Source: Gemmatimonadota bacterium
Lineage (GTDB): Bacteria; JAAXHH01
Direction: 5' to 3'
Assembly (NCBI GenBank): GCA_009841265.1
Contig: VXMB01000009.1
Span: 229,911 to 293,910, forward strand
DNA: 64,000 nucleotides
The position numbers and the translations under genes are program-made. How positions within the stretch are numbered: position 1 is the stretch's first letter; every line of letters starts with the position of its first letter. Below, in pieces: positions 15,048 to 44,531 of this stretch. Below the pieces are notes generated by a model. The model was not told where the DNA came from. It worked only from the letters and a program-made list of their open reading frames with translations, and searched no databases.

Positions 15048-15890
15048 ATGATCTGGGGGAGCGGAGACTATTGTTACGAGAAGGTGCCGGAGTGGGGATC
15101 CGAGCGCACGCTGGGCATCGCCACGGCCGTGGCCGTGGATTCGCGGGACCGGGTCTACGTCGTCGACAGGGAGCCGAGTCCCGCCGTGGTGGTCTACGAC
15201 CGGGACGGCCGCCTGCTGGACGAATGGGGTCACGACATACTGGCCCTGCCCCACGAGATATGGATCGACTGGGAGGACAGGATCTTCATTCCGGACTGCA
15301 GAGATCATACCGTCCGGGTGTTCGCGACCGACGGCACCCTGCTACAGACGCTGGGAGAGCCGAACCGGGCCGGAGAGCCGGGCAAACCCTTCAACATGCC
15401 GACGCGCGCCGTCAAAGGCGCTTCCGGGGACCTGTACGTCTCCGACGGGTACGGGCAGTGTTTCGTGCACCGGATGACGCCCTCTGGAGACCTGGTCCGG
15501 ACCTGGGGCGGAAGAGGTGCCGAACCCGGCCGGTTCACCCTCCCGCACAACATCTTCCCCGTGTCCGACGGCCGCCTGCTCGTCGCCGACCGGGAGACCA
15601 ATAACCGGATCCAGGTTTTCGATTCCGAGGGCAGCTTCCTCTCGGAATGGCCCGGCCGTCCCGCGCCCTGCGGCCTGTTTGTCGATGACGAGGATACGGT
15701 CTTCCTGGGCGAGGGCGGCGGGGTCACCATCATGAACATGGACGGAAGGCTCATCGCCCAGTGGGTCGTCCGGGGCGGACCGGTCGACCGGGCCCATGGC
15801 GCCCACAGCGTCTGGGTCGACCGCCACGGGGATATCTACGTGGGCGAGGTGGGCGTGGAGAACCTCGTGCATAAATACGTCCGCGTTTGA
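15048..15890 (+). CDS. NHL-repeat beta-propeller protein
   Basis: 280 aa; repeated ...VAVDxxDRVYVxD... / ...YVSDGYG... blades. Confidence 0.6.
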   Translation: MIWGSGDYCYEKVPEWGSERTLGIATAVAVDSRDRVYVVDREPSPAVVVYDRDGRLLDEWGHDILALPHEIWIDWEDRIFIPDCRDHTVRVFATDGTLLQTLGEPNRAGEPGKPFNMPTRAVKGASGDLYVSDGYGQCFVHRMTPSGDLVRTWGGRGAEPGRFTLPHNIFPVSDGRLLVADRETNNRIQVFDSEGSFLSEWPGRPAPCGLFVDDEDTVFLGEGGGVTIMNMDGRLIAQWVVRGGPVDRAHGAHSVWVDRHGDIYVGEVGVENLVHKYVRV

Positions 15891-15928
15891 CGGACCGAAT
15901 TTCCCTGAATACATCCCCGCATGCATCT

Positions 15929-16147
15929 ATGAATCCTCTCCCTTCCGACCGACATTTTCCCCGATGGATCTGGGCCGTCTACGCGGCCCTCTTCGCCCTG
16001 TCGATACCGTGGTACCTCCCGGAGATTGAACCGGTCCCGGTCTGGATCGGCGTTCCGTACTGGGTCGTGATCTGCCTGGCGGCCTGCCTGGCCATCGCGT
16101 GCTTCACCGCGTTCGTGATACACCGATACTGGAGGGAGGACGGATAA
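15929..16147 (+). CDS. small two-TM membrane protein coupled to the SSS transporter (DUF3311-like)
   Basis: ORF 15887..16147; in-frame ATG at 15929; ends 4 nt before the symporter start; this is the typical small partner position of solute:Na+ symporters. Confidence 0.45.
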   Translation: MNPLPSDRHFPRWIWAVYAALFALSIPWYLPEIEPVPVWIGVPYWVVICLAACLAIACFTAFVIHRYWREDG

Positions 16148-16150
16148 CCC

Positions 16151-17641
16151 ATGGCGGATCAGCCTTACGGCCCCGGCGCCTTCGCCTTCCTGGCCGCCTA
16201 CCTCGTCTTCATGATCGTCCTGGGATACGTGGCCCGGTCCCGCCGCCGGGACGATTCCATGTCCTCCTTCTACCTGGCGGGCAAGAACCTGGGCGCCCTG
16301 GTTCTCTTCTTCACGCTCTACGCGACCCAGTACAGCGGAAACACGCTCATCGGCTATCCAGGCGAGGCCTACCGGCTGGGATACGCCTGGATCATGAGCG
16401 TCGGTTTCATGATGGCCATCGTGGTGGCCTACCTGCTCTTCGCGCCGCCGCTCTACCGCGCGTCGCAGCGGGGCAACTTCGTGACGCCGGGCGACTGGAT
16501 CACCCATCGATTCGGTGCGGACGGAAGATCCGGACTGACCCTCTTCGCCGGCGTGCTGTTCGTGGTCGCCATCGCCAACTACCTGCTCGCGCAGCTCCTG
16601 GCGGTTGGGCACATCGTTTCCGGCCTGTCTGGCGGCGCCATTCCGTTCTGGGCGGGCGTGGTGATCCTCGCGGTCATCATCCTGTTTTATGAGACCCTCG
16701 GCGGCATGCAGGCCGTGGCGTGGACCGACTGCATCCAGGGCCTGCTTCTCTTCGTCGGCCTGCTGGGCATGCTGGCCGCCGTGGTCGCGGGGAGCGACCG
16801 CCTCGGTGAAGCGACGGCGTGGATCATCGCCCATCAGCCTGCGAAAGCCGCGCTTCCCGAGGGAGAAACGATCCGTACCTGGATCAGCACCATCCTGCTG
16901 GTCGGCTTCGCCGCCGCCGTCTATCCCCAGGCCATACAACGCATCTTCGCCGCCCGGAGCACCCGCAGCCTGAAGCGGTCGTTCACCTTCATGGCCTTCA
17001 TGCCCCTGGCCACCATCTCGGCGGTCGTGCTCGTCGGGATCCTCGCCATCCCGCAGCTATCGGGCCTGGAGGGTGTCGAAACCGACCAGGTCATGCCCCG
17101 CCTGCTTCGGGTCTGGGCCGCCGAATCGCTCTGGCTCTACGTCATGACCGTGCTCGTCCTCACCGGCATCGTCGCGGCGATCATGTCGACGGCCGACTCC
17201 GTCCTGCTCAGCCTCTCTTCCCTGCTCGTCAAGGACGTGCTGGGCCGGTTCCGGATGGGTTCGCTCCCGGAAGCGCGCCATACCGCGTGGGGGAAGCGCC
17301 TGTCCTGGATCATCATGGCCATCCTGGTCCTCATCGCCCTGACGCCGGATCTCACCCTGTGGGGACTCATCGAGCTGAAGATGGAGGTGCTGATCCAGAC
17401 TGCCCCGCTGTTTGTACTTGGGGTGCTGTGGCCGCGATTCAGCGCGTCAGGCGCGGCCGCGGGCATGGCCGCGGGCACGGTACTCGCGGCCGGGCTGACC
17501 CTCGCGGGCATGGGCAAGGTCTGGGGCTGGCACGCCGGCGTGCTGGGCCTTGCGCTGAACGTGATTGTGGGGGTGGCGGTGAGTTGGGCAGGGCGTTCCC
17601 ATCGGTTCAGATCACCGAATATACTTGACTTTTGTAACTAA
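16151..17641 (+). CDS. sodium:solute symporter (SSS) family transporter
   Basis: 496 aa; 13-14 TM helices; SSS-family N-terminal region (YLAGKNLGALVLFFTLYATQYSGNTLIG). Confidence 0.8.
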   Translation: MADQPYGPGAFAFLAAYLVFMIVLGYVARSRRRDDSMSSFYLAGKNLGALVLFFTLYATQYSGNTLIGYPGEAYRLGYAWIMSVGFMMAIVVAYLLFAPPLYRASQRGNFVTPGDWITHRFGADGRSGLTLFAGVLFVVAIANYLLAQLLAVGHIVSGLSGGAIPFWAGVVILAVIILFYETLGGMQAVAWTDCIQGLLLFVGLLGMLAAVVAGSDRLGEATAWIIAHQPAKAALPEGETIRTWISTILLVGFAAAVYPQAIQRIFAARSTRSLKRSFTFMAFMPLATISAVVLVGILAIPQLSGLEGVETDQVMPRLLRVWAAESLWLYVMTVLVLTGIVAAIMSTADSVLLSLSSLLVKDVLGRFRMGSLPEARHTAWGKRLSWIIMAILVLIALTPDLTLWGLIELKMEVLIQTAPLFVLGVLWPRFSASGAAAGMAAGTVLAAGLTLAGMGKVWGWHAGVLGLALNVIVGVAVSWAGRSHRFRSPNILDFCN

Positions 17642-17705
17642 ATGACATATATTAGTCGCTACGTCGGAACATAGTCGGATGTCAATTTTCGAAAGGAGTA
17701 AAATC

Positions 17706-17957
17706 ATGAGAAGTGGCGATGAAATGTTAAAGCAGATCGTAGAGAAGTCCTCCCTGGATTCGGATTTCAGGCAAAAGCTGATCGCGGACCCGAAGTCGAC
17801 CATCTGTGAGGAACTGGACATTACGATGCCGGAATCCATGTCGATCCAGGTCCACGAAAGCGATATGCAGACGGTACATATCGCACTGCCCCCGGATGCG
17901 AATATCACCGAGGAGCAGCTTGAAGCCGTCTCGGCCGGACTCTGCTGCTGCTGGTAA
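17706..17957 (+). CDS. NHLP (nitrile-hydratase-leader-peptide) family RiPP precursor; predicted core LCCCW
   Basis: ORF 17679..17957; strong RBS aggag 7 nt before the second ATG (17706); leader KQIVEKSSLDSDFRQKLIADPKSTICEELDITMPESMSIQVHESDMQTVHIALPP...EEQLEAVSAG matches the NHLP consensus, including the EAV-[AS]-[GA]-G double-Gly-type cleavage site; followed by LCCCW-stop. Confidence 0.7.
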   Translation: MRSGDEMLKQIVEKSSLDSDFRQKLIADPKSTICEELDITMPESMSIQVHESDMQTVHIALPPDANITEEQLEAVSAGLCCCW

Positions 17958-18100: not shown

Positions 18101-19219
18101 TCAGTTCGCGTGCGCACCGGAAAGCACCATGTATAGATAGGCCTTGGCCTGTGCCAGCCGGTTTCCGGATATGACCAGCTTGATGTGATGTATGCCTCGC
18201 AACATGAGAAAAGGCCCGGTCTTGCCAAACAATGTCGTGGGTTTGGAAGCCCAGTCCGCAAGGGCCGCGAGCTTCTCCGGAACGACATAATCCTCATAGC
18301 CCAACGCATCCAGAACGGGATCCCAGTCGGTCATGCCGTCGATCCAGTAACGGGAATCCTGCGTGTACCTCTGCTTGACGATGGGCGTCAGCCCGAGTGT
18401 GGGCCCCAGCCCGTCTGCCCGCACGTCTACGTTTAAGCCAGCGCTCACGATGTCCGCCCTTTCCCTCAGGCGCGCGAGCACGGATTCGACCGCGGAAACC
18501 TGCCCCGGCCATCCGGTGTTTTCAAGATAAGGGCCGATTCCGTCCTCCGCGCTGAAACCCATGATCGCCAGGCGGACCGTGCGCTTCCGGGACGGAAACA
18601 CGCCGAAGGAGTCCAGGCGCGTGTCTTCCGGTTGCGCCAGGTAGACCCGTTCGGCGTTTTCTCGCTCAGCGGCTATCCTTTCCCAACCGACGCTGGAAAC
18701 GAGGGCGTCGACCACGATGCCGACGTCATGCTGGAGTCCGGCGCCGCCGAACAGCGTGCGTTCGTTGGGCCGCAGAAACAGGCCCGGCAACGATTTTTCT
18801 TCACCCGGCGCCGAGCCTACGTCATACTCCAGCATCAGCTTCCGCCCCACGATCTCTCTCAGCGACGAATGCTCGGCTTCCATTTCCCCGAACAGCCGCC
18901 TTACCGCTCCAGCCGTTTCATCCGTCTCGTCTGTCCGCGCTTGCGCTTCAAAAAAGTCCCCCGATCGGTTTCCGCTTGCCAGCGAGACGCCGAAGTCCGC
19001 CACGGGCCGGCTATCGTGCAGCGGAAGTTCAAAACCGAAGGGCTGGGCGCCCATCGTTATGGGCAGTTGCGTCGATTGTTTCAGTACAAGCCCCCATTCC
19101 CGCGCTCCGATCAGACCGGGTGAAATCCCATTTCGCAACTGCGCCAGCAACTCGGCCATCGTTTCGCCCTCTATGGCGAGACGATCCTGGGTGTGCAGGA
19201 CGGCATCGTCGATATTCAC
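18101..19219 (-). CDS. hypothetical protein, last gene of the RiPP operon (candidate tailoring enzyme)
   Basis: 372 aa; 9-nt gap after the YcaO gene; no motif recognised. Confidence 0.4.
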   Translation of the reverse strand: MNIDDAVLHTQDRLAIEGETMAELLAQLRNGISPGLIGAREWGLVLKQSTQLPITMGAQPFGFELPLHDSRPVADFGVSLASGNRSGDFFEAQARTDETDETAGAVRRLFGEMEAEHSSLREIVGRKLMLEYDVGSAPGEEKSLPGLFLRPNERTLFGGAGLQHDVGIVVDALVSSVGWERIAAERENAERVYLAQPEDTRLDSFGVFPSRKRTVRLAIMGFSAEDGIGPYLENTGWPGQVSAVESVLARLRERADIVSAGLNVDVRADGLGPTLGLTPIVKQRYTQDSRYWIDGMTDWDPVLDALGYEDYVVPEKLAALADWASKPTTLFGKTGPFLMLRGIHHIKLVISGNRLAQAKAYLYMVLSGAHAN

Positions 19220-19228: not shown

Positions 19229-21667
19229 TTACACGATGACCGGTGCGGGGTTCAATTCGGCCTCGGTCAGGGGTTGATTGCGAAAGCCCATGTCGACCGG
19301 CACGTCGTACAGGCGCCCCGGGGCGAATCTCGCCCAGAAATGGCGCATGCCCGGTACGATGACCCGCGCCACCGGCATGCCGATGTCCGGCCGGGTCTGG
19401 TCCAGCACGAGGAACTCCATGCCCCTGGCTTCGATCAGCGCGCGGCAGCAGTCCACGTCTTCCCGTGTATCCGCGGTCTCGATCGCCGGATACTGCGCGG
19501 CCTGCCTGAGCGGCGCGTCCGTCGACGGCGCCAGCCAGGCACAATCGGCGATTCGAGCCGTCTTCCACCAGTTTAGCGCCATGGGATCGTCGATCATGGG
19601 CTGGTTAGGTCGACCGGATCGGCCAGACTGTGCGGGCTGACCGGTTAGTCCGGACCGACCCGATTGACCGCCGCCTACGCTTCCACCGGGCCGGGGAAGC
19701 CACGTCAGGCACTGGTTCAACTCGCATAAGGCGCGCAGGGCCGCCAGTCGCGGGTCGGCATGGGCGCCCGCGCCGTATATGATGTCCTCGGTTTCCGCGT
19801 CCGGCCGCCGGGAAAGCGCAACGAAGGACGGAATGCCCGTATCGGACGTCACGTCGAGCATCCAGACCTCCCGCTCGCATCGTCCGTAATAGTCCGTGGC
19901 CGACGCGAGGAATGGGTCGTCAAAGCTGGAGAGATCCACCCCGGGGACGCTCAGCCGGTTATACCACCAGATGGCGAAGGCATCGCGCTCGACCAGTTCA
20001 TAGAAACCCTGCAGGATGGCCTCCTCCAGGGTGTTCCCCGCGGCGCAGCCGTTGGAATCGGCAATCACTTCGGCGGGTCCGCGCTGTTCCGGCGCCATGC
20101 TGTAGAGCATCGACGTCGGCAGGTATCGATGCCGTCCTTGCGTGAACGACCACACGGGCGTCCAGTCGATTTCGGCGGCGGGATTGAAACGAGGCGGGAC
20201 GATGTTGTAGGGGTGGCCTGCCGTGTTGATGCTTTCCGCGTTGTCGAGCTGGTCGTTACTGAACAACTGCACGTCGTTGGGGTGGATCGCCCGGTCTTCG
20301 GCGGCGAAATCGACGAATTGACCGCGGGTACGGATTTCGTCTCCGCTAAAAGCGCCTGAATGACGTTCGATCGCCTCGCAGAGGGCACTGGTCTCGGACT
20401 GTTCCCGCGTACTGCCCTTGCCGGCGCTTTTGCTGCGCAGGCTGCGCCTGAGCGAACTCAGGCTCCGGCTTCTCATACCGGGATTGCTCCCGGCCCAGTA
20501 GACGTGAAGCCAGGCGTCATGCTCACTGGTCGTGCGCGCCAGCCAGGTTACGATGCCGCTTACCGGGCTCACAAGGTGGCGGTATTGCGCCAGGGTGGCT
20601 TCCGGCGTCACGGCCCGCGCACCGCCGCTGTTGCGGTGGAGTTTGGGGCTGGCCTTGAGACGCAGCGGCACCGGCGGCCGGTCGGGCCGGTGCAGCGCTT
20701 CTTCGCCGCAGGCCGGACATTGCGGCCGGCGCAGGACCGTATGCGTCGAGCTCGCGACCGCGCCGACATGCAACGAAATTGCCTGTCCGTCGATCGGCGC
20801 CGATTCCTCCAGCACCAGCCACTTGACGATTTCAGCCGAAACCAGCCCGTATACCGCCTCAAGCGCGACAGGTTCGGCGGCGAACGGCTTGAAGGCGGCA
20901 TCCTCGCCGGCAACGTGCCGAAGGAACTGGTGGGCCTCCTTGTGGCCCCGTAGCCGGTGGGCCAGGCAGTCCCAGCAGGGGCCCTTCCGGTCCGCGTGAA
21001 AGACGGGTCCGAACAGCGCCTCCATGCCGTGCGGACGCACCAGCATCCACGGCGCTCCCGCCTCGAGCCGGCACCGATTCACCGCTGCAAACCGCGCGTC
21101 GAGGTAATCGTCGCATACGATAACCTTGAGCTGGACGTCGTCGTCGGCCACCACGTCGGCCACCACGCCGGCGCCGCTCGTTTCCAGCTGCCGGGACAGC
21201 CTTCCGTCGTCGCCGTCGACAGCGACGCGCGAATCCGCCAGCCGTTGTTCGACCCATCGGGGCGATGCGCCGAGGGACGTCCAGTATGCCGCCCGGGACC
21301 GGTCCATGCCATGATCGGCGGAGATGACATAGCCCCGGTCGGAGAGCGAAACGATCGCCGCGCGCACATCGGCCGCGGCATAGCGGCCCTCGAGGTCGGC
21401 GACGATGCCGGCCAGGGGACAGCGGCCGTCGAGAAGAGGAAGCAGATCGCAAAGCAGGGCGCCGTGCAGCAGTGTATCGAAGGACTCGGAAACCAGCAGC
21501 GTCTGCTGTGCGCCGATGACGTGGGATCGCAAGTGCGGGGTAAGCGCGGGAAGATCGACGAGGCCCAGGTCATCGGGGGTCGTTCTCGTGAGTTTCCCCT
21601 GGCGGGCATTCTTGCTGGTCGTCCCTGGCGTCCCGGGTTCCCGCGTCTTCTCGGCAGGCGCTTTCAT
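19229..21667 (-). CDS. fused E1-like docking domain / YcaO cyclodehydratase (TOMM heterocyclase, PatD/TruD-like architecture)
   Basis: 812 aa; N-terminal half with CxxC pairs (CWDC, QCPACG); C-terminal YcaO domain with LVSPVSGIV, SNGCAAGNTLEEAILQGFYELVERDA and a Pro-rich C-terminus; 4-nt overlap with the upstream gene. Confidence 0.8.
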   Translation of the reverse strand: MKAPAEKTREPGTPGTTSKNARQGKLTRTTPDDLGLVDLPALTPHLRSHVIGAQQTLLVSESFDTLLHGALLCDLLPLLDGRCPLAGIVADLEGRYAAADVRAAIVSLSDRGYVISADHGMDRSRAAYWTSLGASPRWVEQRLADSRVAVDGDDGRLSRQLETSGAGVVADVVADDDVQLKVIVCDDYLDARFAAVNRCRLEAGAPWMLVRPHGMEALFGPVFHADRKGPCWDCLAHRLRGHKEAHQFLRHVAGEDAAFKPFAAEPVALEAVYGLVSAEIVKWLVLEESAPIDGQAISLHVGAVASSTHTVLRRPQCPACGEEALHRPDRPPVPLRLKASPKLHRNSGGARAVTPEATLAQYRHLVSPVSGIVTWLARTTSEHDAWLHVYWAGSNPGMRSRSLSSLRRSLRSKSAGKGSTREQSETSALCEAIERHSGAFSGDEIRTRGQFVDFAAEDRAIHPNDVQLFSNDQLDNAESINTAGHPYNIVPPRFNPAAEIDWTPVWSFTQGRHRYLPTSMLYSMAPEQRGPAEVIADSNGCAAGNTLEEAILQGFYELVERDAFAIWWYNRLSVPGVDLSSFDDPFLASATDYYGRCEREVWMLDVTSDTGIPSFVALSRRPDAETEDIIYGAGAHADPRLAALRALCELNQCLTWLPRPGGSVGGGQSGRSGLTGQPAQSGRSGRPNQPMIDDPMALNWWKTARIADCAWLAPSTDAPLRQAAQYPAIETADTREDVDCCRALIEARGMEFLVLDQTRPDIGMPVARVIVPGMRHFWARFAPGRLYDVPVDMGFRNQPLTEAELNPAPVIV

Positions 21668-24105
21668 GCGTGTGCGGCGAGCGTATCGATCCGGGCGGCG
21701 GCGCGGGTGGCGGTTTCGTCGACCGCCGACGCCAGCGCATCGAAGTCCTGCTGCCCGCAGGCGTTCGCCACCAGGGATTTGACCTTCGCTCCCGCCGTTG
21801 CCGCGTCGAATCCGTCCTCTCCGACCAGCCGCATGACCCCCTGCAAGTCACGCCACAGGTTAGCGGCTTGCGCCAGCGGCTCGTCGCCGGCGGCATCGAA
21901 CACCGCCACGGCGGACGGCGCAGGATCGTCGAGGAAGTCACCGGCACGGTTCAACTGCAGGAAGCGCGCGGCCTGCTCGACATCGTTCAATCCGCCGGGC
22001 ATCTGGGCGTATGCGGACACACTCGTCTCTGCGCGGCCTGCCGGCTGTCCGCCCGATCCGGCGTACACCGCCGCGTCCGTACTGCATTCGGCCAGGACCC
22101 GGCGCCGCGCATCATCAAAGCGGCTTCCGATGCCGGAACCCTCGGTCTCGAAGACACAACGGGTCCGGGTGAGCACGGGAACCCCGCCGGAAGCCGGGTC
22201 ACGGGCTTGCTCGGCCAGATCGGAGAGCGATACCGCTGGCATGGCCTCCACGCCGGCGGAGACCGGGGAGAACAACAGGTTGTCCTGCGCCAGGTCGGCC
22301 AGGGCCTTGCGGAAACTCCGGCACAGGCGTTCATTCGCGCCGGACTGCGCGCCGTCATGGACGAACAGCATGTCGACCGCTACGCCGGGATAGGCTTCCC
22401 GGCTGGCCAGATCACCCAGGAAGATGGCGGCGACCTCGCCCACGCTGTCCGTGCCGTACCGCTCGCCGAAATCCGCCACCACGGAGGCAAGCACCGTCGA
22501 AACCGACGCTTCGGAGAGATTGGACAGCGCCGTCCGCGCCTCCGCCGGGAGCAGGTTTCCGCGCACCACGTGCATGCCGATCTGAAACGCCTTGTCGTTC
22601 GACCAGTTCCGCACGATCTCGGCGGTTTCCCTCGCGTCGACCACGGGCAACTCGACGATCAGGTCCTTCATTTCCTGAACGCCCATTTCGTAGGTCCAGT
22701 AGACCCGTGCAAGCCCGCGCCTTGCGATCGACTCGAACTCCTCGTCCTGCTCGAATCCCTTGGGCAGGTCGAGATCGAGGAATTCCTGTTCCTGCAGGTT
22801 ATCCAGGAGCTCCGGGTTCCGTTCGATCCATTTCGCGAGCCGCGGCGCGGCGCCAAATATCTCGACGATCATGTCAAAGGCGTCGGGACGCTTCGCGGCA
22901 AGGGGACTGTCGTAGACGCTCCAGTCTTCGATCTCCGGGTAGAAGTGCTTGCGCCACTGGTCCACCAGCGGGTCCATCTTTTCAAACCACTTTTTGGGCT
23001 TCAGGACGATGTTCATCATATCGGAGTAGGTGCCTGGCAGTTCCGGCGATTCGTCGAGACTGACCTGCAGCAGGGGATACTGGCGGGATGCCACCGCGTG
23101 ATGGTCGGCATGTCGCTGCGCATTGAAAAGCATCCAGTTGCTGAACTTCCAGTCGGCACTCCAGGAATGGCGGGGCATGATCTTCTCCCACCGGCCGTTT
23201 TCCAGGCGGACCCGGCGCAGGCCGTAGTGCTGGAAGTAGTTGCTGATCTTCATCGAAAAGACGCAGGACAGGCCGAGGAAGGCGAAGACCGGGACCGCCC
23301 AGATCCCGCCCATCCAGAAAACCAGTGCGTACCAGAACGCGACGCCGAAGCCGTAGCGCCAGAAGGGATTGCTGTAATGCCACATGGTCCGGCGGCGCCG
23401 TGCCAGGCGTTCTCGTGCCACTTCCCATGAATTGACGAGGTTGCTGACGATTTCCTTGGGCATGTACCGCCAGAAACTCTCCCCCTTCGGCGCGGACCCC
23501 ACGTCGTAGGGCGTGCCGACCAGGGCGTGGTGGATATAGACGTGCTCCGTGGCATACTGCGGATAGGAAGCGGAAGACAGCAGGAACTCGCCGATCCGGC
23601 GTTCCCAGGTCGTGCGCCGGTGAATCAGTTCGTGGCCTACCACGAACACGGCCTGTGCTTCCATCGTCAGTATGATGGCCAGCACAACGTCCTGCCACCA
23701 GACGAAGGGATCCGCCACCAGGATCTGCCACAGGCCGAAGACCAGGGTGGGCGGCCACAGAAACGCCCATGACCAGACCGGCAGATTGTGCCAGATCAGG
23801 CGGTGTTTCGGCGTCTTCCACGGATCCATTATGCGTCCGTCCCGTCCGAACACCCGGTCGAAGGACCAGGAAAGACTCATGAAGACCATGGGCGGCAGGA
23901 GCCACCATCCGCCCCACAACGCGGCGAGCAGAATCAACGGGAAAACGCCCAGCGGCAGGTAATGCGGGAGGGCGGTCAGGATGGACGGCTCGATCTCCTG
24001 CGTTGCATCGGCCTGGCCCGGTCCGGTGCCATTGGTTTCAGCGCGGTCGATTTCAACTGGATTTTGTGACATGGCTACACCTCCTTGGTCAGCATAACCT
24101 GGCAC
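21664..24105 (-). CDS. fusion: AlkB-like integral-membrane di-iron hydroxylase/desaturase (N) + GlnE-like nucleotidyltransferase domain (C)
   Basis: 813 aa; His boxes HELIHRR, EHVYIHH, NYFQHYGL and LFNAQRHADHHA align with the AlkB HELGHK/EHNRGHH/NYIEHYGL/LQRHSDHHA motifs; C-terminal FLGDLASREAYPGVAVDMLFVHDG matches the GlnE/GlnD NTase motif G-x-L-x-x-RE...D-x-D-L-x-F. Confidence 0.65.
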   Translation of the reverse strand: MPGYADQGGVAMSQNPVEIDRAETNGTGPGQADATQEIEPSILTALPHYLPLGVFPLILLAALWGGWWLLPPMVFMSLSWSFDRVFGRDGRIMDPWKTPKHRLIWHNLPVWSWAFLWPPTLVFGLWQILVADPFVWWQDVVLAIILTMEAQAVFVVGHELIHRRTTWERRIGEFLLSSASYPQYATEHVYIHHALVGTPYDVGSAPKGESFWRYMPKEIVSNLVNSWEVARERLARRRRTMWHYSNPFWRYGFGVAFWYALVFWMGGIWAVPVFAFLGLSCVFSMKISNYFQHYGLRRVRLENGRWEKIMPRHSWSADWKFSNWMLFNAQRHADHHAVASRQYPLLQVSLDESPELPGTYSDMMNIVLKPKKWFEKMDPLVDQWRKHFYPEIEDWSVYDSPLAAKRPDAFDMIVEIFGAAPRLAKWIERNPELLDNLQEQEFLDLDLPKGFEQDEEFESIARRGLARVYWTYEMGVQEMKDLIVELPVVDARETAEIVRNWSNDKAFQIGMHVVRGNLLPAEARTALSNLSEASVSTVLASVVADFGERYGTDSVGEVAAIFLGDLASREAYPGVAVDMLFVHDGAQSGANERLCRSFRKALADLAQDNLLFSPVSAGVEAMPAVSLSDLAEQARDPASGGVPVLTRTRCVFETEGSGIGSRFDDARRRVLAECSTDAAVYAGSGGQPAGRAETSVSAYAQMPGGLNDVEQAARFLQLNRAGDFLDDPAPSAVAVFDAAGDEPLAQAANLWRDLQGVMRLVGEDGFDAATAGAKVKSLVANACGQQDFDALASAVDETATRAAARIDTLAAHA

Positions 24106-24136: not shown

Positions 24137-25438
24137 TCAGGTTCGCAGGAAGGCGGCTAAACGCTCGAGCGCTTCGATACAGAACGCGGTGGTCACGGCT
24201 TCGGAGCCATGGCCTATTTGTCCTACCGCGCCGAACTTCAGTGTCTGATCGCCGAAGGCGAGCAGTTCCGGCCAACTGCCGTCCCCGCGTTGCGCGGTCA
24301 GGATGCGCCTCAACGGCCGCGTCGCGTCGGTCCTTTCCAGGCATCCCGCGTCGCAGAGCGTCGACACGGCCTGGGCGGTCTGCAGGACGTTGCCGTAACC
24401 GCCCTCTTCGTCCGCCAGGCCCAGGACACGATCCGCGAGGACCGGGCGCAGCCGATCCAGGGCGGGCGACACGCGTCGCACGGCCCGGGCGACCGCGTAA
24501 CAGATCGCGATCTCGTCGGGGTACCACTTGGACGCGTCCTTGAGATCGCCTTCGGTGATCAGCGCCTCCAGCCATCGCTGGGCATCCCTGGTTTCCGGGC
24601 AGTCGCCGAGCCAGGCGATGACGTTTGCGTTGACTACGGGGTCGGCTTCGATGCGAAATCGCGACACGACATCGGGTTCGTCGCCCTCCAGCATCCAGGT
24701 CATGAAGCGGCCTTCCCCATCGCGGTTCGCCAGTATCCGAGGTATGTTCCTCCCCAGCAGGATCCAGGGGTGCGTTCCGATCACCAGGGAACAGAGCGAG
24801 GTGCTGTCGAGATCCTGGGGAAGATGACGGTAATAGCGCCAGAATCCGGGATATTCGATGGTGTCGACCAGATAAGTGCTGGTCGCGGTGCAGATGGATC
24901 TGGCCTTCGCTTCCCGGCAATTTTCCAGGGCAAGGACGCAGAACGCCGAAATGAAGGGAGGCCTTTCGAAGTGCCGCGGCACCTTCGGATCGGCCACGTT
25001 GAACCGGATGCAGTGCCAGGCGCCATGCTCGTCTATCGTCGACTCAAGGAAGTCAAGGCCACGGCGGATGCTTTCTCTGGCCGCTTCCGCCAGCACCTCG
25101 GCGCCGGCGTCGCTACCGGGGACGCGCCCCGCCTCGTCACCCGGCGGCCGTAGGGGCGGGGCGGGATCGTGCATGGTCTTGCGCAGAAACGCGAAGGACG
25201 ACGCGCCGGTGCGCGCCTCCTCCCGTTCCTCCCTGGTAAATCGGTTGCGAGGGGGCAGGACGATATGGGTCGCGGCGGCGGTCTCTTCGTGCACGTGAAT
25301 CTCGTGGTCTTCAGCCATCGTCACGCCGAACTCCTGCTCGATGGTCTCTTTGGGCCTGGCAAGGAGACGTTTCCTCAATTCGTCGTCGTCGCCCGCTTTC
25401 AAGATAAGTAAATCGACCGCATTAGAGGACTTTTTCAT
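24137..25438 (-). CDS. NHLP-leader-like N-terminal domain fused to an alpha/alpha-toroid (prenyltransferase/terpene-cyclase-like repeat) domain
   Basis: 433 aa; the N-terminus DLLILKAGDDDELRKRLLARPKETIEQEFGVTMAEDHEIHVHEETAAATHIVLPP is NHLP-like but has no GG/core; the C-terminus carries repeated ...EEGGYGN...Q / ...RGDGSWPE...G-hairpin-like motifs. Confidence 0.55.
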   Translation of the reverse strand: MKKSSNAVDLLILKAGDDDELRKRLLARPKETIEQEFGVTMAEDHEIHVHEETAAATHIVLPPRNRFTREEREEARTGASSFAFLRKTMHDPAPPLRPPGDEAGRVPGSDAGAEVLAEAARESIRRGLDFLESTIDEHGAWHCIRFNVADPKVPRHFERPPFISAFCVLALENCREAKARSICTATSTYLVDTIEYPGFWRYYRHLPQDLDSTSLCSLVIGTHPWILLGRNIPRILANRDGEGRFMTWMLEGDEPDVVSRFRIEADPVVNANVIAWLGDCPETRDAQRWLEALITEGDLKDASKWYPDEIAICYAVARAVRRVSPALDRLRPVLADRVLGLADEEGGYGNVLQTAQAVSTLCDAGCLERTDATRPLRRILTAQRGDGSWPELLAFGDQTLKFGAVGQIGHGSEAVTTAFCIEALERLAAFLRT

Positions 25439-25488: not shown

Positions 25489-28440
25489 TCAGGCGATTTG
25501 CCGCCTGATCAGTTCCTTGAATACCCCGTCGGTCTCCTTCAGTTCGTTGAAAGAGCCGCTTTGGACGACCTTGCCGGCTTTCAGCACGTAGATGCGATCG
25601 GCCTGCTCGAGCGTGGACAGGCGATGGGCGATGACGAGGCGAGTGGAAGTCAGCGCGGCCAGGTTCCGCATCACGCTGGACTGGTTCTCGTTGTCCAGCC
25701 AGTTCGTCGCCTCGTCGAACAACATGATACGCGGGCTGCCGATCACCGAGCGGGCGATCGTGATGCGCTGGCTCTCGCCGCCCGACAGAACGGAACCGCT
25801 GGTGCCCACCATGGTCATCATGCCCATGGGCATGGCCTTGATCTGGTCTTCGACCTCGGCGGTCCGGACCGCCGCCCATACTTCATCGGTCGACACGCCT
25901 TCATAGTGGCTGACGAGGTTGTCCCAGAGATCCTGGGGATGGAGTCCGACCGATTGGGGTACCGCGCCGATCTTCCGGCGCACCTGTTTCAGATTCAGGT
26001 GCCTCAGGTCGCGCCCGTCGTAGTATACCGCCCCGGCGGTCGGCCAGTCGATGCCGAGCGCAAGCCGGAACAGGGTGCTCTTCCCGGCGCCGGATTCCCC
26101 GGCAATGGCGACGAATTCGCCGGGATGAGCGCGAATCGTTACGTCGTCGAGGATCAGTGGTCCGTCGGCGTCGTAGCGGAAAGAAACATGATCGAACAGG
26201 ATGTCCCCGCCCAGGTATTCGACCGGTTCGCCTTCCGTACCCGTCTCAGGCGCCGCCGAAAGCAGCGGACGCATCTGCTCGAAGGCCGGCAGCATGGAGG
26301 CCAGGGCGCCGATGGACTCGCCGAGCCGGGCGATGGTGGACTGAAACACGATGAAGACCGTGTAAACGACGAGAAAATCGCCGACCGGCATGTTGCGATC
26401 TCCCGCCTCCATTACCGTGAACAGGAGCACGCCGGCGGCAAGGAATGGCAGTGCGGCACCAAATGCCCGAGAATGCCCCTCCAGTGCGCCCAGTTCGATC
26501 TCCGCGCGCTTCTGTGCGCGATAATCCCGTGCCCAGATGGCGTAAGCCGAACCTTCCGCGTTATCCATGCGCAGCTTGGAAATGCCCCCCACGATCTGGA
26601 AGAGCCGGCCGGCCACGCGCCGGGCCGCCCTGATCATCCATCCGTATGGAGAGATCTGGCGCAATCCCAGCACCAGGGTGACCAGCAGCGAAACCAGGCT
26701 GAAGAGGAGGGTGACGATCCCGAGGGTGGTGTCGTAGAAGAAGATGACGCCGAAAACCGGAAGCAGGAATACCAGCGACAGGAAACAGTTGGCGACGACC
26801 CCCCGCAATCCGTCGCGGAGTTGCTGAAAGGTCATTCCCGACATGGCCAGGTCGCCCGCCGGATTGCGGTGCAGCATGCCGGGTGGAAGACGCATGAGAC
26901 GGTCCCAGAAGGCGGCTTCGACTCGGGAGGCCGAGCGCCCCTCCAGCCGCATCATCGCCATGTTCTGGAGCAGGTGCAGCATTGCGCCGAGCAGGCCGAA
27001 GGCCGCAATCGCCACGGCGACCGCGTATAGCATTCCAGCGCTTCCACCCGTCGTGATGTGGTTCGCTACGTACCCGAGGGCGAGCGCCGGCAGCAGCCGG
27101 ATCATGCCGTATGGAAGCCCGGCGATCACCATCCGTGCCCAGTCCGAGGCCGAGCCGCGCAGGGCGATGCCCAGCAGGTCCGCCGGTTTCACACCCCTTG
27201 CCGGCAGGGGCTGATAGAACATCCAGGCCTCTTCCGCCAGCGCGTCCGAACCGGCCAGGCGGGCCGCCGAGACCCGTGTGCGTCGATTGCCGGCCGGGTC
27301 AATTTGACGGTATCGTCCGAACATGCCCGGCAGCAGCGCCACGGGCCGACCGTCGTCGGCGCGGTAGGCCAGCAGCGCGTTGCTGTCACCGTGCCACCAG
27401 CGGTCCTCGGCGTTGAAACGCACGCGCCGGGCGCGCACGCCGGAAGCGTCAAGTATGTCCACGAGGCCGACGGGGGTTTCGGATTGGCCCGATCGCGCCG
27501 GGATCTTGAAATCGATGCCTTCATGACGGCCGATCAGCTGCAGGGCATCCGCAAGTGCCGTATCCTCGGCACCGTCATCCCGGTCGGTCGGAAGGTCGTA
27601 GATATTGTAGAGTCGCTGACGCGCGGTGTTCTCGGCCGTTCGGCGGCTCGCTGTCCGCGCCCGTTCGAGATTGACGGCATCTACAACGACCAGCCGGCGG
27701 TTCAGGCGCTCCAGGGTGAATGCGACCGCGTGGAACGAGGCGAGTGCCGCCAGCAGCCTGCCCTGCCGGGCCAGTGTTTCCGTTGACTGACCGGTCAGCG
27801 TCGCCTCGTCGACCAGGGTGAGCCAACTCGTCCGGGCCAGCGGGATGACCGTCTCGTGGGGGCTGCCCGTCTCCGCAAGTTCCGCCGTGTCGACGATCCC
27901 CATGAACAGGCCCGCGCCGGACGGCGGTTCAGAGATCCATACCACGCCGCGACGGACGGACAACGTACAGGGCGCCAGCGTCTGCGTCAGGCCGGGTTCG
28001 GCCAGCGCGGTCGGACGGGGAGGGGGGATGGCGAAACGCGCCAGCGTCTCCGTAATGGCGGTCAGCCACGTGTCGGTCTGTTCCGCCAGTTCCGCTGGAT
28101 CCACCCGGGACAGCAGGGAAGCCGGCAGACGCTTGAGCAGGGTGCCCGGCATTCCCCTGGCGATGATACTGAGCGTGGTGTCTGTTTCACCGCCCAACCG
28201 GTGCGGCGCGACCCCCGGCAGCAGCCAGCCCGATTCCCGGCGCAATAAGTGCTGCGGCGCCGCCTGCTCCGTCCCGTTTTTGAGTTCGACCAGGAACAGG
28301 TTGACGACGCCCTGGTCGATGAACCAGACGCTGTCCCGGTCGTCGAGGTAGACGGGCAGGTTACCTGCGCAGGGCACGGATTCGCCGAAGCGATCGGCGA
28401 GTTCGGCCAATGGCGAGTATTTCGGTTCGTTGGGCTGCAT
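25489..28440 (-). CDS. NHLM-type bacteriocin ABC transporter, second ATP-binding/permease subunit with a cNMP-binding-like N-domain (no peptidase)
   Basis: 983 aa; N-terminal ~150 aa non-peptidase domain, 6-TM permease, Walker A GESGAGKST, signature LSGGESQRITIARS, Walker B IMLFDEAT. Confidence 0.75.
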   Translation of the reverse strand: MQPNEPKYSPLAELADRFGESVPCAGNLPVYLDDRDSVWFIDQGVVNLFLVELKNGTEQAAPQHLLRRESGWLLPGVAPHRLGGETDTTLSIIARGMPGTLLKRLPASLLSRVDPAELAEQTDTWLTAITETLARFAIPPPRPTALAEPGLTQTLAPCTLSVRRGVVWISEPPSGAGLFMGIVDTAELAETGSPHETVIPLARTSWLTLVDEATLTGQSTETLARQGRLLAALASFHAVAFTLERLNRRLVVVDAVNLERARTASRRTAENTARQRLYNIYDLPTDRDDGAEDTALADALQLIGRHEGIDFKIPARSGQSETPVGLVDILDASGVRARRVRFNAEDRWWHGDSNALLAYRADDGRPVALLPGMFGRYRQIDPAGNRRTRVSAARLAGSDALAEEAWMFYQPLPARGVKPADLLGIALRGSASDWARMVIAGLPYGMIRLLPALALGYVANHITTGGSAGMLYAVAVAIAAFGLLGAMLHLLQNMAMMRLEGRSASRVEAAFWDRLMRLPPGMLHRNPAGDLAMSGMTFQQLRDGLRGVVANCFLSLVFLLPVFGVIFFYDTTLGIVTLLFSLVSLLVTLVLGLRQISPYGWMIRAARRVAGRLFQIVGGISKLRMDNAEGSAYAIWARDYRAQKRAEIELGALEGHSRAFGAALPFLAAGVLLFTVMEAGDRNMPVGDFLVVYTVFIVFQSTIARLGESIGALASMLPAFEQMRPLLSAAPETGTEGEPVEYLGGDILFDHVSFRYDADGPLILDDVTIRAHPGEFVAIAGESGAGKSTLFRLALGIDWPTAGAVYYDGRDLRHLNLKQVRRKIGAVPQSVGLHPQDLWDNLVSHYEGVSTDEVWAAVRTAEVEDQIKAMPMGMMTMVGTSGSVLSGGESQRITIARSVIGSPRIMLFDEATNWLDNENQSSVMRNLAALTSTRLVIAHRLSTLEQADRIYVLKAGKVVQSGSFNELKETDGVFKELIRRQIA

Positions 28441-30650
28441 CAGTTCGACCTGACCAGTTTGTAGTACGTGCTGTCCCGGTCGGCGATCAACTCGTCGTGC
28501 GTGCCCCGTTGTACCGTAATGCCCTGGTCCAGCACGATGATCTCATCGCAGTCCCGCACGGTACTCAGGCGGTGCGCCACGATCAGGCAGGTGACCCCGC
28601 GCCGCCGCAGCGCATCATCGACGTATTCCTCCGTGGCCGCATCGAGGGCGCTGGTGGCCTCGTCCAGGATGAGCACCGTGGGGTTGCCCACCAGCGCGCG
28701 GGCGATTTCCAGCCGTTGGCGCTGGCCGCCGCTGAAGTTCGCCCCTCCTTCTTCGACGAGCGTCGCATAGCCGTGGGGCCTGAGCAGGACTTCGTCGTGA
28801 ATCTGGGCGTCCCGCGTCGCGGCAAAGAGGACTTCGTCCGGGATGGCCGGGTTCCACAGCGTGATATTGTCGCGCAGGGACGCGGAAAAGAGCACGATCT
28901 CCTGGTCCACCATGGAGATGGATTGCCGCAGCACCTCCTCGGGGATCTGATCGCGCAAATGGTCGTCAAACATGATCTCGCCCGACCAGGGCTGGTAGAC
29001 CCCCGATACAAGCCGCGCGAGGGTCGATTTGCCGGATCCGCTTGGACCGACCACGGCGATCCGCTGGCCCGGTTTGATCTCGAGGCTGAAGTCCTTGATC
29101 AGGGGCGGCCGGCTCCGGTTGTAACCGAAGGTGACGTTACGCAGTTCCAGCTGGCCGGCGAGCTGGAGCCGGCCGTTGAACGTGTGTATCGCATCCGATT
29201 CCGGGTTTCTGCGACGAAAGACCGGATCCTCATCGGTTTTGGATATGTCCTCGAGCCGTTGCAGATCGGTTTCGAGGGCCTGGCGGTTTTCGGCGAACTC
29301 CAGGAAGCGCTCGACGGGGGCCAGGAACATCTCCGCCAGGATGAAGAATCCCACCAGCATGCCCAGCGACATTTCTCCCTGCATGACCATCATGCCGCCG
29401 ATGCCCAGGATCGCCGCACTGCGCAGCGCGTCGACCAGTCCCGGCAGCGAGGCGTTGACGGAGCCCAGTTCCGAATACAGCTGTCGTGCGCGCAACTCCC
29501 GGGCCTGTTGCCCGCTCCATCGCGAGAAAAACCGGTCGTCCGCCCCCGTCATCCGCAGATTGTCGGCATGGCTCAGCATCTGCATGCCGAGACCGATCAG
29601 CAACCCCTGCTCCCGCCTCATCGTCTGACTGCGGACGGCTCTGAGGTTGTTGAGAAAACGGGCAAGCACCGCGTGCAGCAGCGCCAGCACGATCACGATC
29701 AGCGTGAGTACGGTGTCGAAGGCGAACATCGCAATGAGGAACACCGCGCTCATGGCCATGTCGATCACGAGCACCAGGAACTGGTCCGCCAGGTTTTTGG
29801 CGATTCGGTCGGTGGACGACACCCGGTCAGTGATGTCGCCGGCCAGCCTGTTTTCAAAGAACTCCACCGGCAGGCGAAGCAGCCGTGACATCCCGTTGCT
29901 GTAGCCGGCTACCGATACACGGACCGCGAGCCGCTTGAGGAACCGGTGCTTGAGGAGAGACAGGACATACACCAGCACGCCTCCGCCCAGCAAGGCGGTT
30001 ACCAATCCGCCCCAGGTCCCGTGCTTAGCCATGACGTCGTCGACGAAAACGCCGAGCGATGCCGGAACGACCAGGGTCAACATCGTCAGCATGAGTCCGC
30101 AGGCCACCACGCCGGTCAGCAGTCGCCATGACCCGGCGATCAGGCCGTTCAGTTGCCTGAACAGGTCGGGTTGCTCGCCGCCGGGCGTAAAGTCCTCGCC
30201 GCGCTTGAAGCGAAGCGCAATGCCGCTGTAGCTCTTCTCGAACTCTTCGGCGGTGACCCTGCGCCGTCCCGTGGAAGGGTCGTTGAGATAGTAGTAGCGG
30301 CTGTCGATTCCTTCGAGGACGAGGAAATGGCTGAACTGCCAGAACAACACCAGCGGAAATTCCAGCATTTTCAGTTGCTCGGCGCGCACGCTGAGGCCGT
30401 TACACTCGAGACCGTAGTGCCGGGAGGCACGCAGGATGCTCGCGGCACTGCTTCCGTCCCGGCTCACCTCGCATTTTTCCCGCAGTTCGGTGAGCGGCAC
30501 CCATCTCCCGAAGTATCCCAGTACGATGCCGAGACAGGCCGCGCCGCACTCCGATGCGTGCATCTGCAGCAGAACGGGCGTGGATATCCGCTGCGCCGAG
30601 TCGTCCGCGGCGTTCTTGTTGCCGGCTTGTTTGGTCGTGCTCACCGTCAT
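28440..30650 (-). CDS. NHLM-type bacteriocin ABC transporter with N-terminal C39 peptidase domain (leader-cleaving exporter)
   Basis: 736 aa; C39 catalytic Cys context QMHASECGAACLGIVLGYFG, TM domain, Walker A GPSGSGKST, LSGGQRQR, ILDEATSALD. Confidence 0.8.
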   Translation of the reverse strand: MTVSTTKQAGNKNAADDSAQRISTPVLLQMHASECGAACLGIVLGYFGRWVPLTELREKCEVSRDGSSAASILRASRHYGLECNGLSVRAEQLKMLEFPLVLFWQFSHFLVLEGIDSRYYYLNDPSTGRRRVTAEEFEKSYSGIALRFKRGEDFTPGGEQPDLFRQLNGLIAGSWRLLTGVVACGLMLTMLTLVVPASLGVFVDDVMAKHGTWGGLVTALLGGGVLVYVLSLLKHRFLKRLAVRVSVAGYSNGMSRLLRLPVEFFENRLAGDITDRVSSTDRIAKNLADQFLVLVIDMAMSAVFLIAMFAFDTVLTLIVIVLALLHAVLARFLNNLRAVRSQTMRREQGLLIGLGMQMLSHADNLRMTGADDRFFSRWSGQQARELRARQLYSELGSVNASLPGLVDALRSAAILGIGGMMVMQGEMSLGMLVGFFILAEMFLAPVERFLEFAENRQALETDLQRLEDISKTDEDPVFRRRNPESDAIHTFNGRLQLAGQLELRNVTFGYNRSRPPLIKDFSLEIKPGQRIAVVGPSGSGKSTLARLVSGVYQPWSGEIMFDDHLRDQIPEEVLRQSISMVDQEIVLFSASLRDNITLWNPAIPDEVLFAATRDAQIHDEVLLRPHGYATLVEEGGANFSGGQRQRLEIARALVGNPTVLILDEATSALDAATEEYVDDALRRRGVTCLIVAHRLSTVRDCDEIIVLDQGITVQRGTHDELIADRDSTYYKLVRSN

Positions 30651-31428: not shown

Positions 31429-32724
31429 CTAAACCGGCGCCTGTCGGCCGGTCCAGCCCAGTCCCTGGGACATCTGTGCGTAACTGGTGAGCGGCACCGC
31501 GCACATCCGGTGCCAGTCGGCTTTGTCGATGACCGGCCGGTTCAGCAGTTCGAGCATCCCATCGAATCTGCCGAGTGCATCGCAATCCACCGCCTCGGGA
31601 TCCATGGCCTTTCGGTGCCGGGGCCAGGCTCGTTCTCGCGCGTGGCGCCAGAACGCGCCGTCGTAAATCGAACCGCAGGCATAGTGCCAGCCGACGAAAA
31701 GGCCGTAGCAGAGCATGTTGTTGATGAGAAACCGGTTGACCGAGGGCGCGTCGCGCCCGAGATGCGCCGCCGGCCGATTGAGGCGCGTCTGGAGCACCAT
31801 CCCGACCTGCAGTTGAGCGGACACGATCGCCGTCGCCTCGAGGGGCTCCATGAAAGCCGCCGCGTTGCCGATGCGGGCCACGGCGCCGTCATAGATCCGG
31901 CGATGGACGAAGTTCGGAAACGGGATGACGGCCCGTTGCTCGAATTCAGCCACGCCGTCGGTCTCCAGGAATGCGTCAAAGTCCGATTCGACTTCCGCAA
32001 GGTCGGATACGTCGCGGTTGAAGATGTACCCGTAAGACGTGTGCACCGTCAACGGAATGACGAATATCCAACCGTGAGGACGGGCAACCGCCCGCGTGTA
32101 GGTATGTTGCCGTACCGGTCCGTTCCGCCCGTCTTCGATGATCGTCGGGCAGCGCCGGATGACGGCGGTATTGGTAGGGATGAAAGAAATGTCGATGTGC
32201 TGATCGGGGTGCAGTTCCTTCGGAAACCCACGGGCATCGAAGACCAGGTCGTAGCGTTCCGACTCCCGGCCCTCGAATTCCACCTGCGCGCCGTCCTCCA
32301 CCCTGGTGATGTCGAGCACTTTCGCGTCGATGTGGCGCGCGCGCGTGCCTTCACGCAGCAGGTCCGCCATCAGGTCGGCGGACAGGTGGTAGGCGTAAGA
32401 CACTTGCTGTGGGGTGAAGTAGTGGGTGAAATCCCGGTCGCGCCGGCCCCATCCCTCGAAGGCGACACCGTACTTGCGTGTGCCCTTCAAACGTTGCTGG
32501 ACGGTCTCATGGGGCAGCCCCGTCAGTTTCTGCAGTTCCTGCACCAGGCTCGGCCAGCTGCCTTCTCCCACCCCGATGACCGGAATGCGCGAGTCATAGA
32601 TGTGGTGCAGCTCGTGGTCGCCGTCGGGGTGAAGACGCGTTACGCTGGCGGCCGCCAGGGATCCTGCGGTCCCCTGCCCGATAACGGCGATCTTCCGTAA
32701 CGATTCCGCGCCCGGCTGGATCAT
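31429..32724 (-). CDS. flavin-dependent halogenase family (tryptophan-halogenase-like) protein
   Basis: 431 aa; FAD motif IAVIGQGTAGSLAA, IGVGEGSWP (cf. GVGEAT), GWIFVIPL (WxWxIP with the second W replaced by F), AAAFMEPLEATAI (cf. FIEPLESTGI). Confidence 0.65.
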   Translation of the reverse strand: MIQPGAESLRKIAVIGQGTAGSLAAASVTRLHPDGDHELHHIYDSRIPVIGVGEGSWPSLVQELQKLTGLPHETVQQRLKGTRKYGVAFEGWGRRDRDFTHYFTPQQVSYAYHLSADLMADLLREGTRARHIDAKVLDITRVEDGAQVEFEGRESERYDLVFDARGFPKELHPDQHIDISFIPTNTAVIRRCPTIIEDGRNGPVRQHTYTRAVARPHGWIFVIPLTVHTSYGYIFNRDVSDLAEVESDFDAFLETDGVAEFEQRAVIPFPNFVHRRIYDGAVARIGNAAAFMEPLEATAIVSAQLQVGMVLQTRLNRPAAHLGRDAPSVNRFLINNMLCYGLFVGWHYACGSIYDGAFWRHARERAWPRHRKAMDPEAVDCDALGRFDGMLELLNRPVIDKADWHRMCAVPLTSYAQMSQGLGWTGRQAPV

Positions 32725-36158: not shown

Positions 36159-36170
36159 ATCATACCTCGT

Positions 36171-44491: not shown

Positions 44492-44531
44492 TATCCTTGG
44501 TGGGTTATTGAAACCAACTTTTGTTTCGCCA

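Follow-up and report, generated by a model that had tools for sequence, protein, structure and literature searches.

The stretch of DNA analysed here, called the window throughout, comprises 64,000 nucleotides of a contig from a Gemmatimonadota bacterium (VXMB01000009.1), and in it a gene on the minus strand joins an oxygenase of the AlkB type to a domain derived from the glutamine synthetase adenylyltransferase GlnE (Table 1). The fusion gene lies within an operon for a peptide that is ribosomally synthesised and modified after translation (RiPP), as a first-pass annotation had proposed, but neither the published cluster type to which the operon belongs nor the hundreds of database entries with the same fusion had been recognised there. 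Since a SrpE precursor with an LCCCW core, a SrpC YcaO protein, a SrpI-type halogenase and NHLP ATP-binding cassette (ABC) exporters are present, all of them shared with the published clusters, this operon is a sponge-derived RiPP proteusin (srp) cluster, a type reportedly described first by Nguyen et al. in J Am Chem Soc in 2021. The loci treated below also match the published clusters in their distribution over several bacterial phyla of sponge microbiomes. SrpE is known as a precursor that combines the LCCCW core with an ITEEQL motif, and SrpE, SrpC and SrpI are the only srp products to have been characterised, SrpC making thiazolines and SrpI brominating tryptophan (PMC10286304, PMC10858898, bioRxiv 10.1101/2023.06.09.544420). 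Such clusters are reported to be ubiquitous in sponges and to occur across bacterial phyla, their transcription being among the highest of the biosynthetic genes there, and the ecological role of their compounds has been termed elusive (bioRxiv 10.1101/2023.06.09.544420).

The single open reading frame (ORF) that the first-pass annotation had placed at 21664-24105 is real. According to the ORF listing and its translation, the maximal form on the minus strand (21664..24105) begins with a GTG and encodes 813 aa. We favour the ATG at 24072 as the likelier start, because it is preceded by AGGAGG and because all homologues begin with MSQ or MPQ at this point, which gives a protein of 802 aa. At the other end the stop codon of the fusion gene overlaps the start codon of the YcaO gene in an ATGA, so that the translational coupling described earlier is confirmed. 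More than 900 database entries match the fusion protein, and the best 120 of them are full-length proteins of 787-824 aa, 71-92% identical, which come from many independent assemblies, including some multi-megabase contigs. Furthermore, the junction between the two domains (aa 360-540) ranks among the best-conserved parts of the fusion in the homologue alignment. The probability that a frameshift in sequencing or assembly has united two genes, a point that the first-pass annotation had suggested checking, is practically nil, because full-length uninterrupted orthologues are found in many independent assemblies and on multi-megabase contigs, because the junction is conserved and because nothing was found in its favour. 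The gene is shown to encode a single 802-aa inner-membrane protein.

The N-terminal half was searched by sequence and by predicted structure. Pfam FA_desaturase matches it with an E-value of 3e-25, and a phmmer search of the Protein Data Bank (PDB) with the full-length protein retrieved the AlkB structures 8f6t (E 9.5e-46) and 8sbb (E 1.5e-34), which were also found by Foldseek with an AlphaFold2 (AF2) model of the fusion (1.4e-8 and 1.2e-7, respectively). The full set of histidine boxes and the multiple transmembrane (TM) helices noted in the first-pass annotation are both there. Nine histidine ligands distributed over the four motifs, which in the family read HELxH, EHxxxHH, NYxxHYG and RHxDHH (here H147, H151, H177, H181, H182, H282, H321, H324 and H325), are invariant in an alignment of 30 sequences, and the hydropathy profile has hydrophobic stretches in three pairs, at 30-67, 102-150 and 241-280, equivalent to six TM-like segments, at which the AF2 model places helices with low confidence. 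The same nine-histidine set in four motifs, including NYxxHYGL, and the same number of TM helices are found in AlkB of Pseudomonas putida GPo1 and in AlkB and AlkB-AlkG of Fontimonas thermophila (PDB 8sbb, 8f6t), the identity in the structural alignment being about 25-28%. These comparisons show the N-terminal half to be a genuine member of the AlkB/XylM family of di-iron oxygenases, predicted from its motifs to be catalytically complete. In contrast to AlkB, the fusion is longer by about 420 GlnE-derived residues at its C-terminus, has no rubredoxin fused to it or encoded nearby, and lies in a RiPP cluster instead of an alkane-degradation operon. A dedicated electron partner is common among AlkB/XylM hydroxylases, yet not obligatory, and in the known AlkB fusions, AlkB-rubredoxin and ferredoxin/ferredoxin-reductase-AlkB, the AlkB core is joined to a cytosolic electron-carrier domain. 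The present protein resembles these known fusions in consisting of a core and a cytosolic extension, but the extension is a degenerate nucleotidyltransferase (NTase) with no redox-cofactor motif, and no dedicated rubredoxin or ferredoxin partner was found either fused to the oxygenase or nearby.

The resemblance of the C-terminal half to GlnE, also proposed earlier, is a true homology. NCBIfam GlnE PRK14108 matches this half with an E-value of 8e-22. A phmmer search of the PDB with the single full-length protein does not reach GlnE, and a profile of the C-terminal half is needed to retrieve the adenylylation domain of E. coli GlnE (3k7d, E 1.6e-9). Pfam GlnE is matched by 13/13 domain sequences scanned, and the window protein alone scores 21-24 bits, under the cutoff of 24. 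A profile search of the whole library returned GlnE proteins of about 950-1000 aa at E-values of 1e-22 to 1e-34, the match lying always in their C-terminal half, and BLASTP aligned the domain with the GlnE P0148, whose identity as such is confirmed by Pfam (E 2e-108), collinearly over GlnE residues 568-1000 with 31% identity (E 3e-57). In the AF2 model, which has a mean predicted local distance difference test (pLDDT) score of 69, the C-terminal half reaches 80-95, and the top structural neighbours given by Foldseek are 3k7d (7.5e-9), 8f6t, 1v4a (2.4e-8), 8sbb and the AMPylase DrrA. The domain assignment of the first-pass annotation is thus correct for both halves. The domain is collinear throughout with the adenylyltransferase half of E. 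coli GlnE (3k7d), from a helical linker with a ...P.LLD.L motif through the NTase fold to a C-terminal helical domain, and these alignments and predicted folds together show the C-terminal half of the fusion to be, by descent, the entire adenylyltransferase half of GlnE. Unlike GlnE, with its two tandem NTase halves for adenylyl removal and adenylyl transfer, the fusion holds just the equivalent of residues 568-1000, has lost the catalytic signatures and is joined to a membrane enzyme. One further library protein, P0172, had been suspected from its length to be a short fusion and turned out to be a plain two-half GlnE.

Loss of the catalytic signatures is where the GlnE assignment of the first-pass annotation needs amendment. 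The C-terminal half carries FLGDLASREAYPGVAVDMLFVHDG in its translation, and LGDLASRE...VDMLFVHD does occupy the site that corresponds by homology to the GlnE motif, but it is a degraded version of it. In the alignment to true GlnE, GKLGSRE...SSDLDLLF is replaced by GDLASRE...GVAVDMLF in the window protein, where GKLGS has become GDLAS and the first aspartate is lost, and GKLYDVDMRLRPSG by NLLFSP-VSAG plus a deletion that removes D-x-RLRP. A wider alignment set 13 fusion-family representatives, which share 30-49% identity with the window protein, beside two RND fusions and six true GlnEs. All six GlnEs keep GKLG[GST], SDxDL and D-x-RLRP. In the fusion representatives GKLG[GS], the GlnE form of the triphosphate-binding hG[GS] motif, is absent from 13/13, the site reading GDLAS in the window protein and being variable in the others, and D-x-RLRP is likewise absent from 13/13, LY-x-[VA]-D-x-RLRP-x-G being replaced by LLFSP and a deletion. 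Of the metal-binding carboxylate pair DxD, 12 of the 13 have lost the first aspartate and the remaining one, P0139, keeps it but has glutamate as the second, so that an intact DxD is found in none. Among close orthologues the first DxD position is occupied by A, E, T, G, K or P (A in the window protein), with D in L017, and the second by D or E, with G in L025. Conservation along the protein falls from 37% invariant columns in the AlkB core to 25-28% in the helical subdomain right after it, which is the best-conserved part of the GlnE-derived domain, then to 6-7.5% across the NTase core and finally to 2-3.5% in the helical part at the end. Because this gradient is opposite to that of an enzyme and the signatures are lost, we regard the domain with good confidence as a pseudo-NTase that is under selection still, in which canonical nucleotidyl transfer is very unlikely; our confidence is held at this level, and no higher, because pseudoenzymes have occasionally proved active.

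The fusion is tied to the srp clusters by two scans. A genome scan with the fusion itself returned 26 loci in metagenome-assembled genomes (MAGs) of Gemmatimonadota, Latescibacterota, Alpha- and Gammaproteobacteria, and Rhodobacteraceae, for which isolate names (SB06xx, IRC, APA, Plut) and the literature suggest sponge or coral hosts. In 26/26 the YcaO gene comes directly after the fusion, and a gene for a 372-aa protein, SrpE and the exporters are found wherever the contig reaches, the 372-aa gene accompanying fusion and YcaO gene in every locus long enough to show it. The precursor core is LCCCW in 20 of these 26 loci, and one has the variant LTCCW (L007 16031-16294, of Latescibacterota type). 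As this sample had been chosen via the fusion, the scan was repeated from SrpE in metagenome contigs, and the fusion was present in 10/10 loci that had a YcaO gene and enough flank. At least four gene orders occur in these SrpE-led clusters: the fusion may be adjacent to and co-directional with the YcaO gene, divergent from it (L042), or apart from it, either beside the halogenase (L053) or at another place in the cluster (L049). One member of the family, 41% identical, belongs to a divergent cluster with a precursor ending in RCCCWA (L033 15279-15557). These results show the fusion to be constantly present in the srp proteusin cluster across several bacterial phyla, and because it is kept through rearrangement and across phyla it is expected to have a role in the pathway.

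Some observations on the range of these clusters may be added. Apart from the variant cores LTCCW and RCCCWA, the CC(C)W theme of the precursors is strictly kept. The most divergent cluster (L025 7780-9890, fusion 44% identical) has genes resembling a flavin adenine dinucleotide (FAD)-dependent oxidoreductase (GAGPAGS) and an S-adenosylmethionine (SAM) methyltransferase between exporter and fusion, and no SrpE-type precursor was found on its contig. SrpE-like precursors (76-77% identical) stand in L051, L054 and L055 with no YcaO gene, fusion or exporter in the flank (±10 kb in L054 and L055; in L051, 9.6 kb of upstream and 1.7 kb of downstream DNA), and are orphan or remote copies.

The family also has members outside RiPP clusters. 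AlkB/pseudo-GlnE fusions 34-49% identical to the window protein were found in such positions (L032 1645-5192; L035 1080-5766; L030 8001-14484; L034 1848-4253). One fusion has a CMAS-type lipid methyltransferase as its translationally coupled partner. A second lies beside a PAF-AH-type lipase and an MFS transporter, a third beside a metallophosphoesterase together with a GT4 glycosyltransferase and a GDSL lipase autotransporter, a fourth in the midst of genes for ribosomal proteins and dnaB, and a fifth beside an amidase and an insertion sequence (IS) element; in none of these five neighbourhoods is a YcaO gene or a precursor found nearby. As to the question raised by the first-pass annotation, whether the fusion always neighbours YcaO and NHLP genes, it does not do so in these other relatives. 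Two AcrB/RND pumps of about 1520 aa (P0173 and P0179) carry a degenerate GlnE adenylyltransferase domain at their C-terminus, where it resembles that of the fusion (26-28% identity, E 3e-36) and is likewise devoid of catalytic signatures; the membrane partner is an efflux pump in these proteins and an oxygenase in the fusion. This suggests that pseudo-GlnE is a general, undescribed appendage of membrane proteins. Given the relatives outside srp and the RND-pump versions, the AlkB/pseudo-GlnE architecture predates its recruitment to srp clusters, the ancestral substrate of the fusion was probably lipid-like, and the pseudo-GlnE domain is therefore not intrinsically a reader of leader peptides.

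Two other conserved genes of the cluster bear on what the oxygenase may do. The model of the 372-aa protein (pLDDT 80) displays five alpha-alpha-beta-beta repeats, which form the barrel of ABBA prenyltransferases. The toroid of the 433-aa protein is recognised by SQHop_cyclase_C in 11/11 orthologues and by Prenyltrans in 6/11. Its N-terminus is SrpE-like up to ...HIVLPP...EEREEARTGA, and possible roles of the protein are those of an enzyme tagged with a leader, of a leader mimic that acts in trans or of an exported protein; the versions of the cluster in Rhodobacteraceae (L017-L020, L023) do not have it, nor does L025. The conserved srp genes whose products are uncharacterised, encoding the fusion, the 372-aa and the 433-aa proteins, all point to the handling of hydrocarbons or isoprenoids.

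We hypothesize that the ABBA-fold protein prenylates the core of SrpE, most plausibly at the tryptophan indole, and that the lipophilic C-terminal end so formed would insert into the membrane close to the exporter. At that place an O2-dependent oxidation of this end by the AlkB domain would follow, either hydroxylation or desaturation, with a terminal or allylic methyl group as the most plausible site, its likeliest target being the isoprenoid tail that the adjacent prenyltransferase-like protein would have placed on the core tryptophan. The oxidation of terminal or allylic methyl groups is a known type of AlkB/XylM reaction. Electrons would be supplied by a host rubredoxin or ferredoxin encoded elsewhere, which we propose because the window encodes none, and export via the C39-ABC system would follow. 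The GlnE-derived domain would transfer no nucleotide and would act as a cytosolic scaffold, that is, as a docking or partner-binding module or as a regulatory one. The whole chain, from prenylation by the ABBA-fold protein to oxidation of the lipophilic peptide end at the membrane with pseudo-GlnE as scaffold, is the reading we prefer, and we judge its chances to be somewhat short of even. It is tentative, and rather doubtful, that the fusion would be the first membrane-embedded AlkB-family oxygenase to serve as a RiPP tailoring enzyme, oxidising the isoprenoid tail of a prenylated, brominated, thiazoline-bearing peptide before export, with pseudo-GlnE recruiting the NHLP leader or the YcaO protein.

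Several points weigh against this chain. The substrate is one we infer solely from the neighbouring genes and from family chemistry, and the existence of family members outside RiPP clusters implies that the ancestral substrate was no peptide. The 372-aa protein has no sequence-family match in Pfam, NCBIfam or a PDB sequence profile search, and no gene for the supply of prenyl diphosphate is found in the window. No rubredoxin signature (CxxCG...CxxCG) occurs in any frame of the 64-kb window, which also has no reductase, and the AlkB half of the AF2 model reaches a pLDDT of only about 40-75. With respect to the C-terminal domain, one acidic residue (D/E) and the serine of the G[GS] motif are still present, and some pseudoenzymes have turned out to be active via non-canonical sites. 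Finally, no published function is available for the AlkB/pseudo-GlnE, ABBA-fold or NHLP-toroid gene in the searchable literature, a body of work that extends to the later srp papers cited above and has the founding paper of Nguyen et al. 2021 outside its scope.

Two alternatives accept an active oxygenase and assign it another substrate. In the first, the AlkB domain would oxidise the peptide itself, turning the three thiazolines into thiazoles in place of an azoline dehydrogenase, or hydroxylating leucine or tryptophan, and recruitment of the NHLP leader or of SrpC would fall to the C-terminal domain. The tight coupling to the YcaO gene, which it overlaps here and adjoins in most arrangements, speaks for this, as does the hydrophobicity of the thiazoline-rich LCCCW core; in addition, no nitroreductase, SagB-type or flavin mononucleotide (FMN) azoline dehydrogenase was detected among the cluster proteins, and membrane di-iron enzymes of the superfamily are known to catalyse desaturations. 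However, the sequence is AlkB/XylM-like, as its NYxxHYGL motif and its best PDB match indicate, a type known for acting on hydrocarbon methyl groups and not on heterocycles, the fusion is separated from the YcaO gene in L049 and L053, and relatives exist with neither YcaO gene nor precursor, so that we hold peptide oxidation to be unlikely. In the second, the fusion would act on a membrane lipid, remodelling the membrane for self-protection or export or yielding an oxidised lipid, and would be tied to srp functionally or genetically only. The lipid-related or housekeeping neighbours of the non-srp members are consistent with such a role, and the degenerate GlnE domain of the AcrB/RND pumps suggests a general module of membrane proteins, not a device for peptide recognition. 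Retention of the gene in every complete srp cluster examined, across rearrangements and phyla, is nevertheless typical of a biosynthetic component, and action on a lipid has in our estimate a low probability. The idea of the first-pass annotation that an active GlnE-like NTase would nucleotidylate or AMPylate the peptide or a regulatory partner is highly improbable, since its clear homology and fold likeness to the GlnE adenylyltransferase half and DrrA, the purifying selection on the domain and the conserved DLAS and acidic residue are outweighed by signatures degraded in every fusion representative and kept in the true GlnEs, by the low conservation of the NTase core and by the sub-threshold Pfam score of the window protein.

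Returning to the chain of prenylation and oxidation that we prefer, if AlkB tailoring is true then the mature product of a widespread and highly transcribed cluster of sponge symbionts would be an oxidised lipopeptide and not the simple bromo-azoline peptide described to date. To the srp cluster three further constant components are added here, an AlkB-type oxygenase that is intact and carries a dead GlnE domain, a protein with the ABBA prenyltransferase fold and an NHLP-fused isoprenoid-type toroid, which together predict more, lipid-like modifications and specific product masses. The work also defines a previously undescribed family, in which the adenylyltransferase half of GlnE has turned into a pseudoenzyme appendage of AlkB-like oxygenases and RND pumps, and it corrects the notion of peptide nucleotidylation as tempting but unsupported. 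In the searchable literature no paper combines AlkB, RiPP and YcaO, and nothing relevant was found on a fusion of AlkB with an adenylyltransferase or on proteusins together with prenyltransferases and sponges. The first-pass annotation had found both the domain combination and an AlkB-like enzyme in RiPP tailoring unfamiliar, and in keeping with this the fusion gene goes unmentioned in the searchable srp papers. We rate the srp cluster as already known, and as new the AlkB protein, whose pseudoenzyme appendage and association with RiPP clusters are both unprecedented.

Table 1. Features of the fusion gene, the srp cluster and its flanks, numbered from the first nucleotide of the window.
Feature	Position	Strand	Evidence or remark
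NHL-repeat protein and sodium:solute symporter	15048-17641	+	flank of the cluster
SrpE NHLP precursor, 92-aa ORF, ending ...ITEEQLEAVSAGLCCCW	17679..17957	+	LCCCW core, ITEEQL motif; likely true start MRSG, about 17706
372-aa protein, ABBA aromatic (indole-type) prenyltransferase fold	18101..19219	-	predicted fold only
SrpC, fused winged helix-turn-helix/E1-like/YcaO cyclodehydratase	19229..21667	-	YcaO E 1.2e-92; TOMM SagD-family E 1e-82
Fusion gene, AlkB-type oxygenase and GlnE-derived pseudo-NTase	21664..24072	-	802 aa plus stop
GlnE-derived domain (adenylyltransferase half), aa 381-802	21667..22932	-	helical subdomain, NTase-fold core, C-terminal helical subdomain
586-aa ORF opposite the fusion gene	21670..23430	+	shadow ORF typical of high-GC DNA, no gene
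Degenerate NTase motif LGDLASREAYPGVAVDMLFVHD, aa 552-573; GlnE counterpart GKLGSREMTVSSDLDLLFLYD	22354..22419	-	alignments
AlkB core, aa 29-380	22933..23988	-	six TM-like segments, nine-His di-iron site
His box 3 QRHADHH, aa 319-325	23098..23118	-	translation, alignment; within NAQRHADHHA
HYG motif NYFQHYGL, aa 278-285	23218..23241	-	translation, alignment
His box 2 EHVYIHH, aa 176-182	23527..23547	-	translation, alignment
His box 1 HELIHRR, aa 147-153	23614..23634	-	translation, alignment
433-aa protein, NHLP-like N-terminal domain and isoprenoid-type alpha/alpha toroid (squalene-hopene cyclase/prenyltransferase-like)	24137..25438	-	orthologue Pfam matches
NHLP bacteriocin ABC exporter subunit 2	25489..28440	-	TIGR03797, E 9e-195
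NHLP bacteriocin ABC exporter with C39 peptidase	28440..30650	-	TIGR03796, E 7.5e-261
SrpI-type flavin-dependent tryptophan halogenase	31429..32724	-	Trp_halogenase E 4.6e-44; kept in related loci
Hma defence island	32838-48203	-	PADLOC
HmaC	32838-36158	-	PADLOC
PDC-M07A/AbiLi-like ATPase	36740-38023	-	within the Hma island, part of defence island
HmaB methylase	38020-41292	-	PADLOC
ThsB-like TIR protein	41351-43816	-	within the Hma island; low-GC patch, 0.42 at 42-44 kb
HmaA helicase	44532-48203	-	PADLOC

With regard to the flanks, the NHL-repeat protein and the symporter on one side of the cluster are syntenic only with loci of the Gemmatimonadota/Latescibacterota type (90-96% identity), by which the window is assigned to that lineage, the srp cassette being common to several phyla, and on the other side the cluster is adjoined by the defence island, in which PADLOC finds an Hma system.

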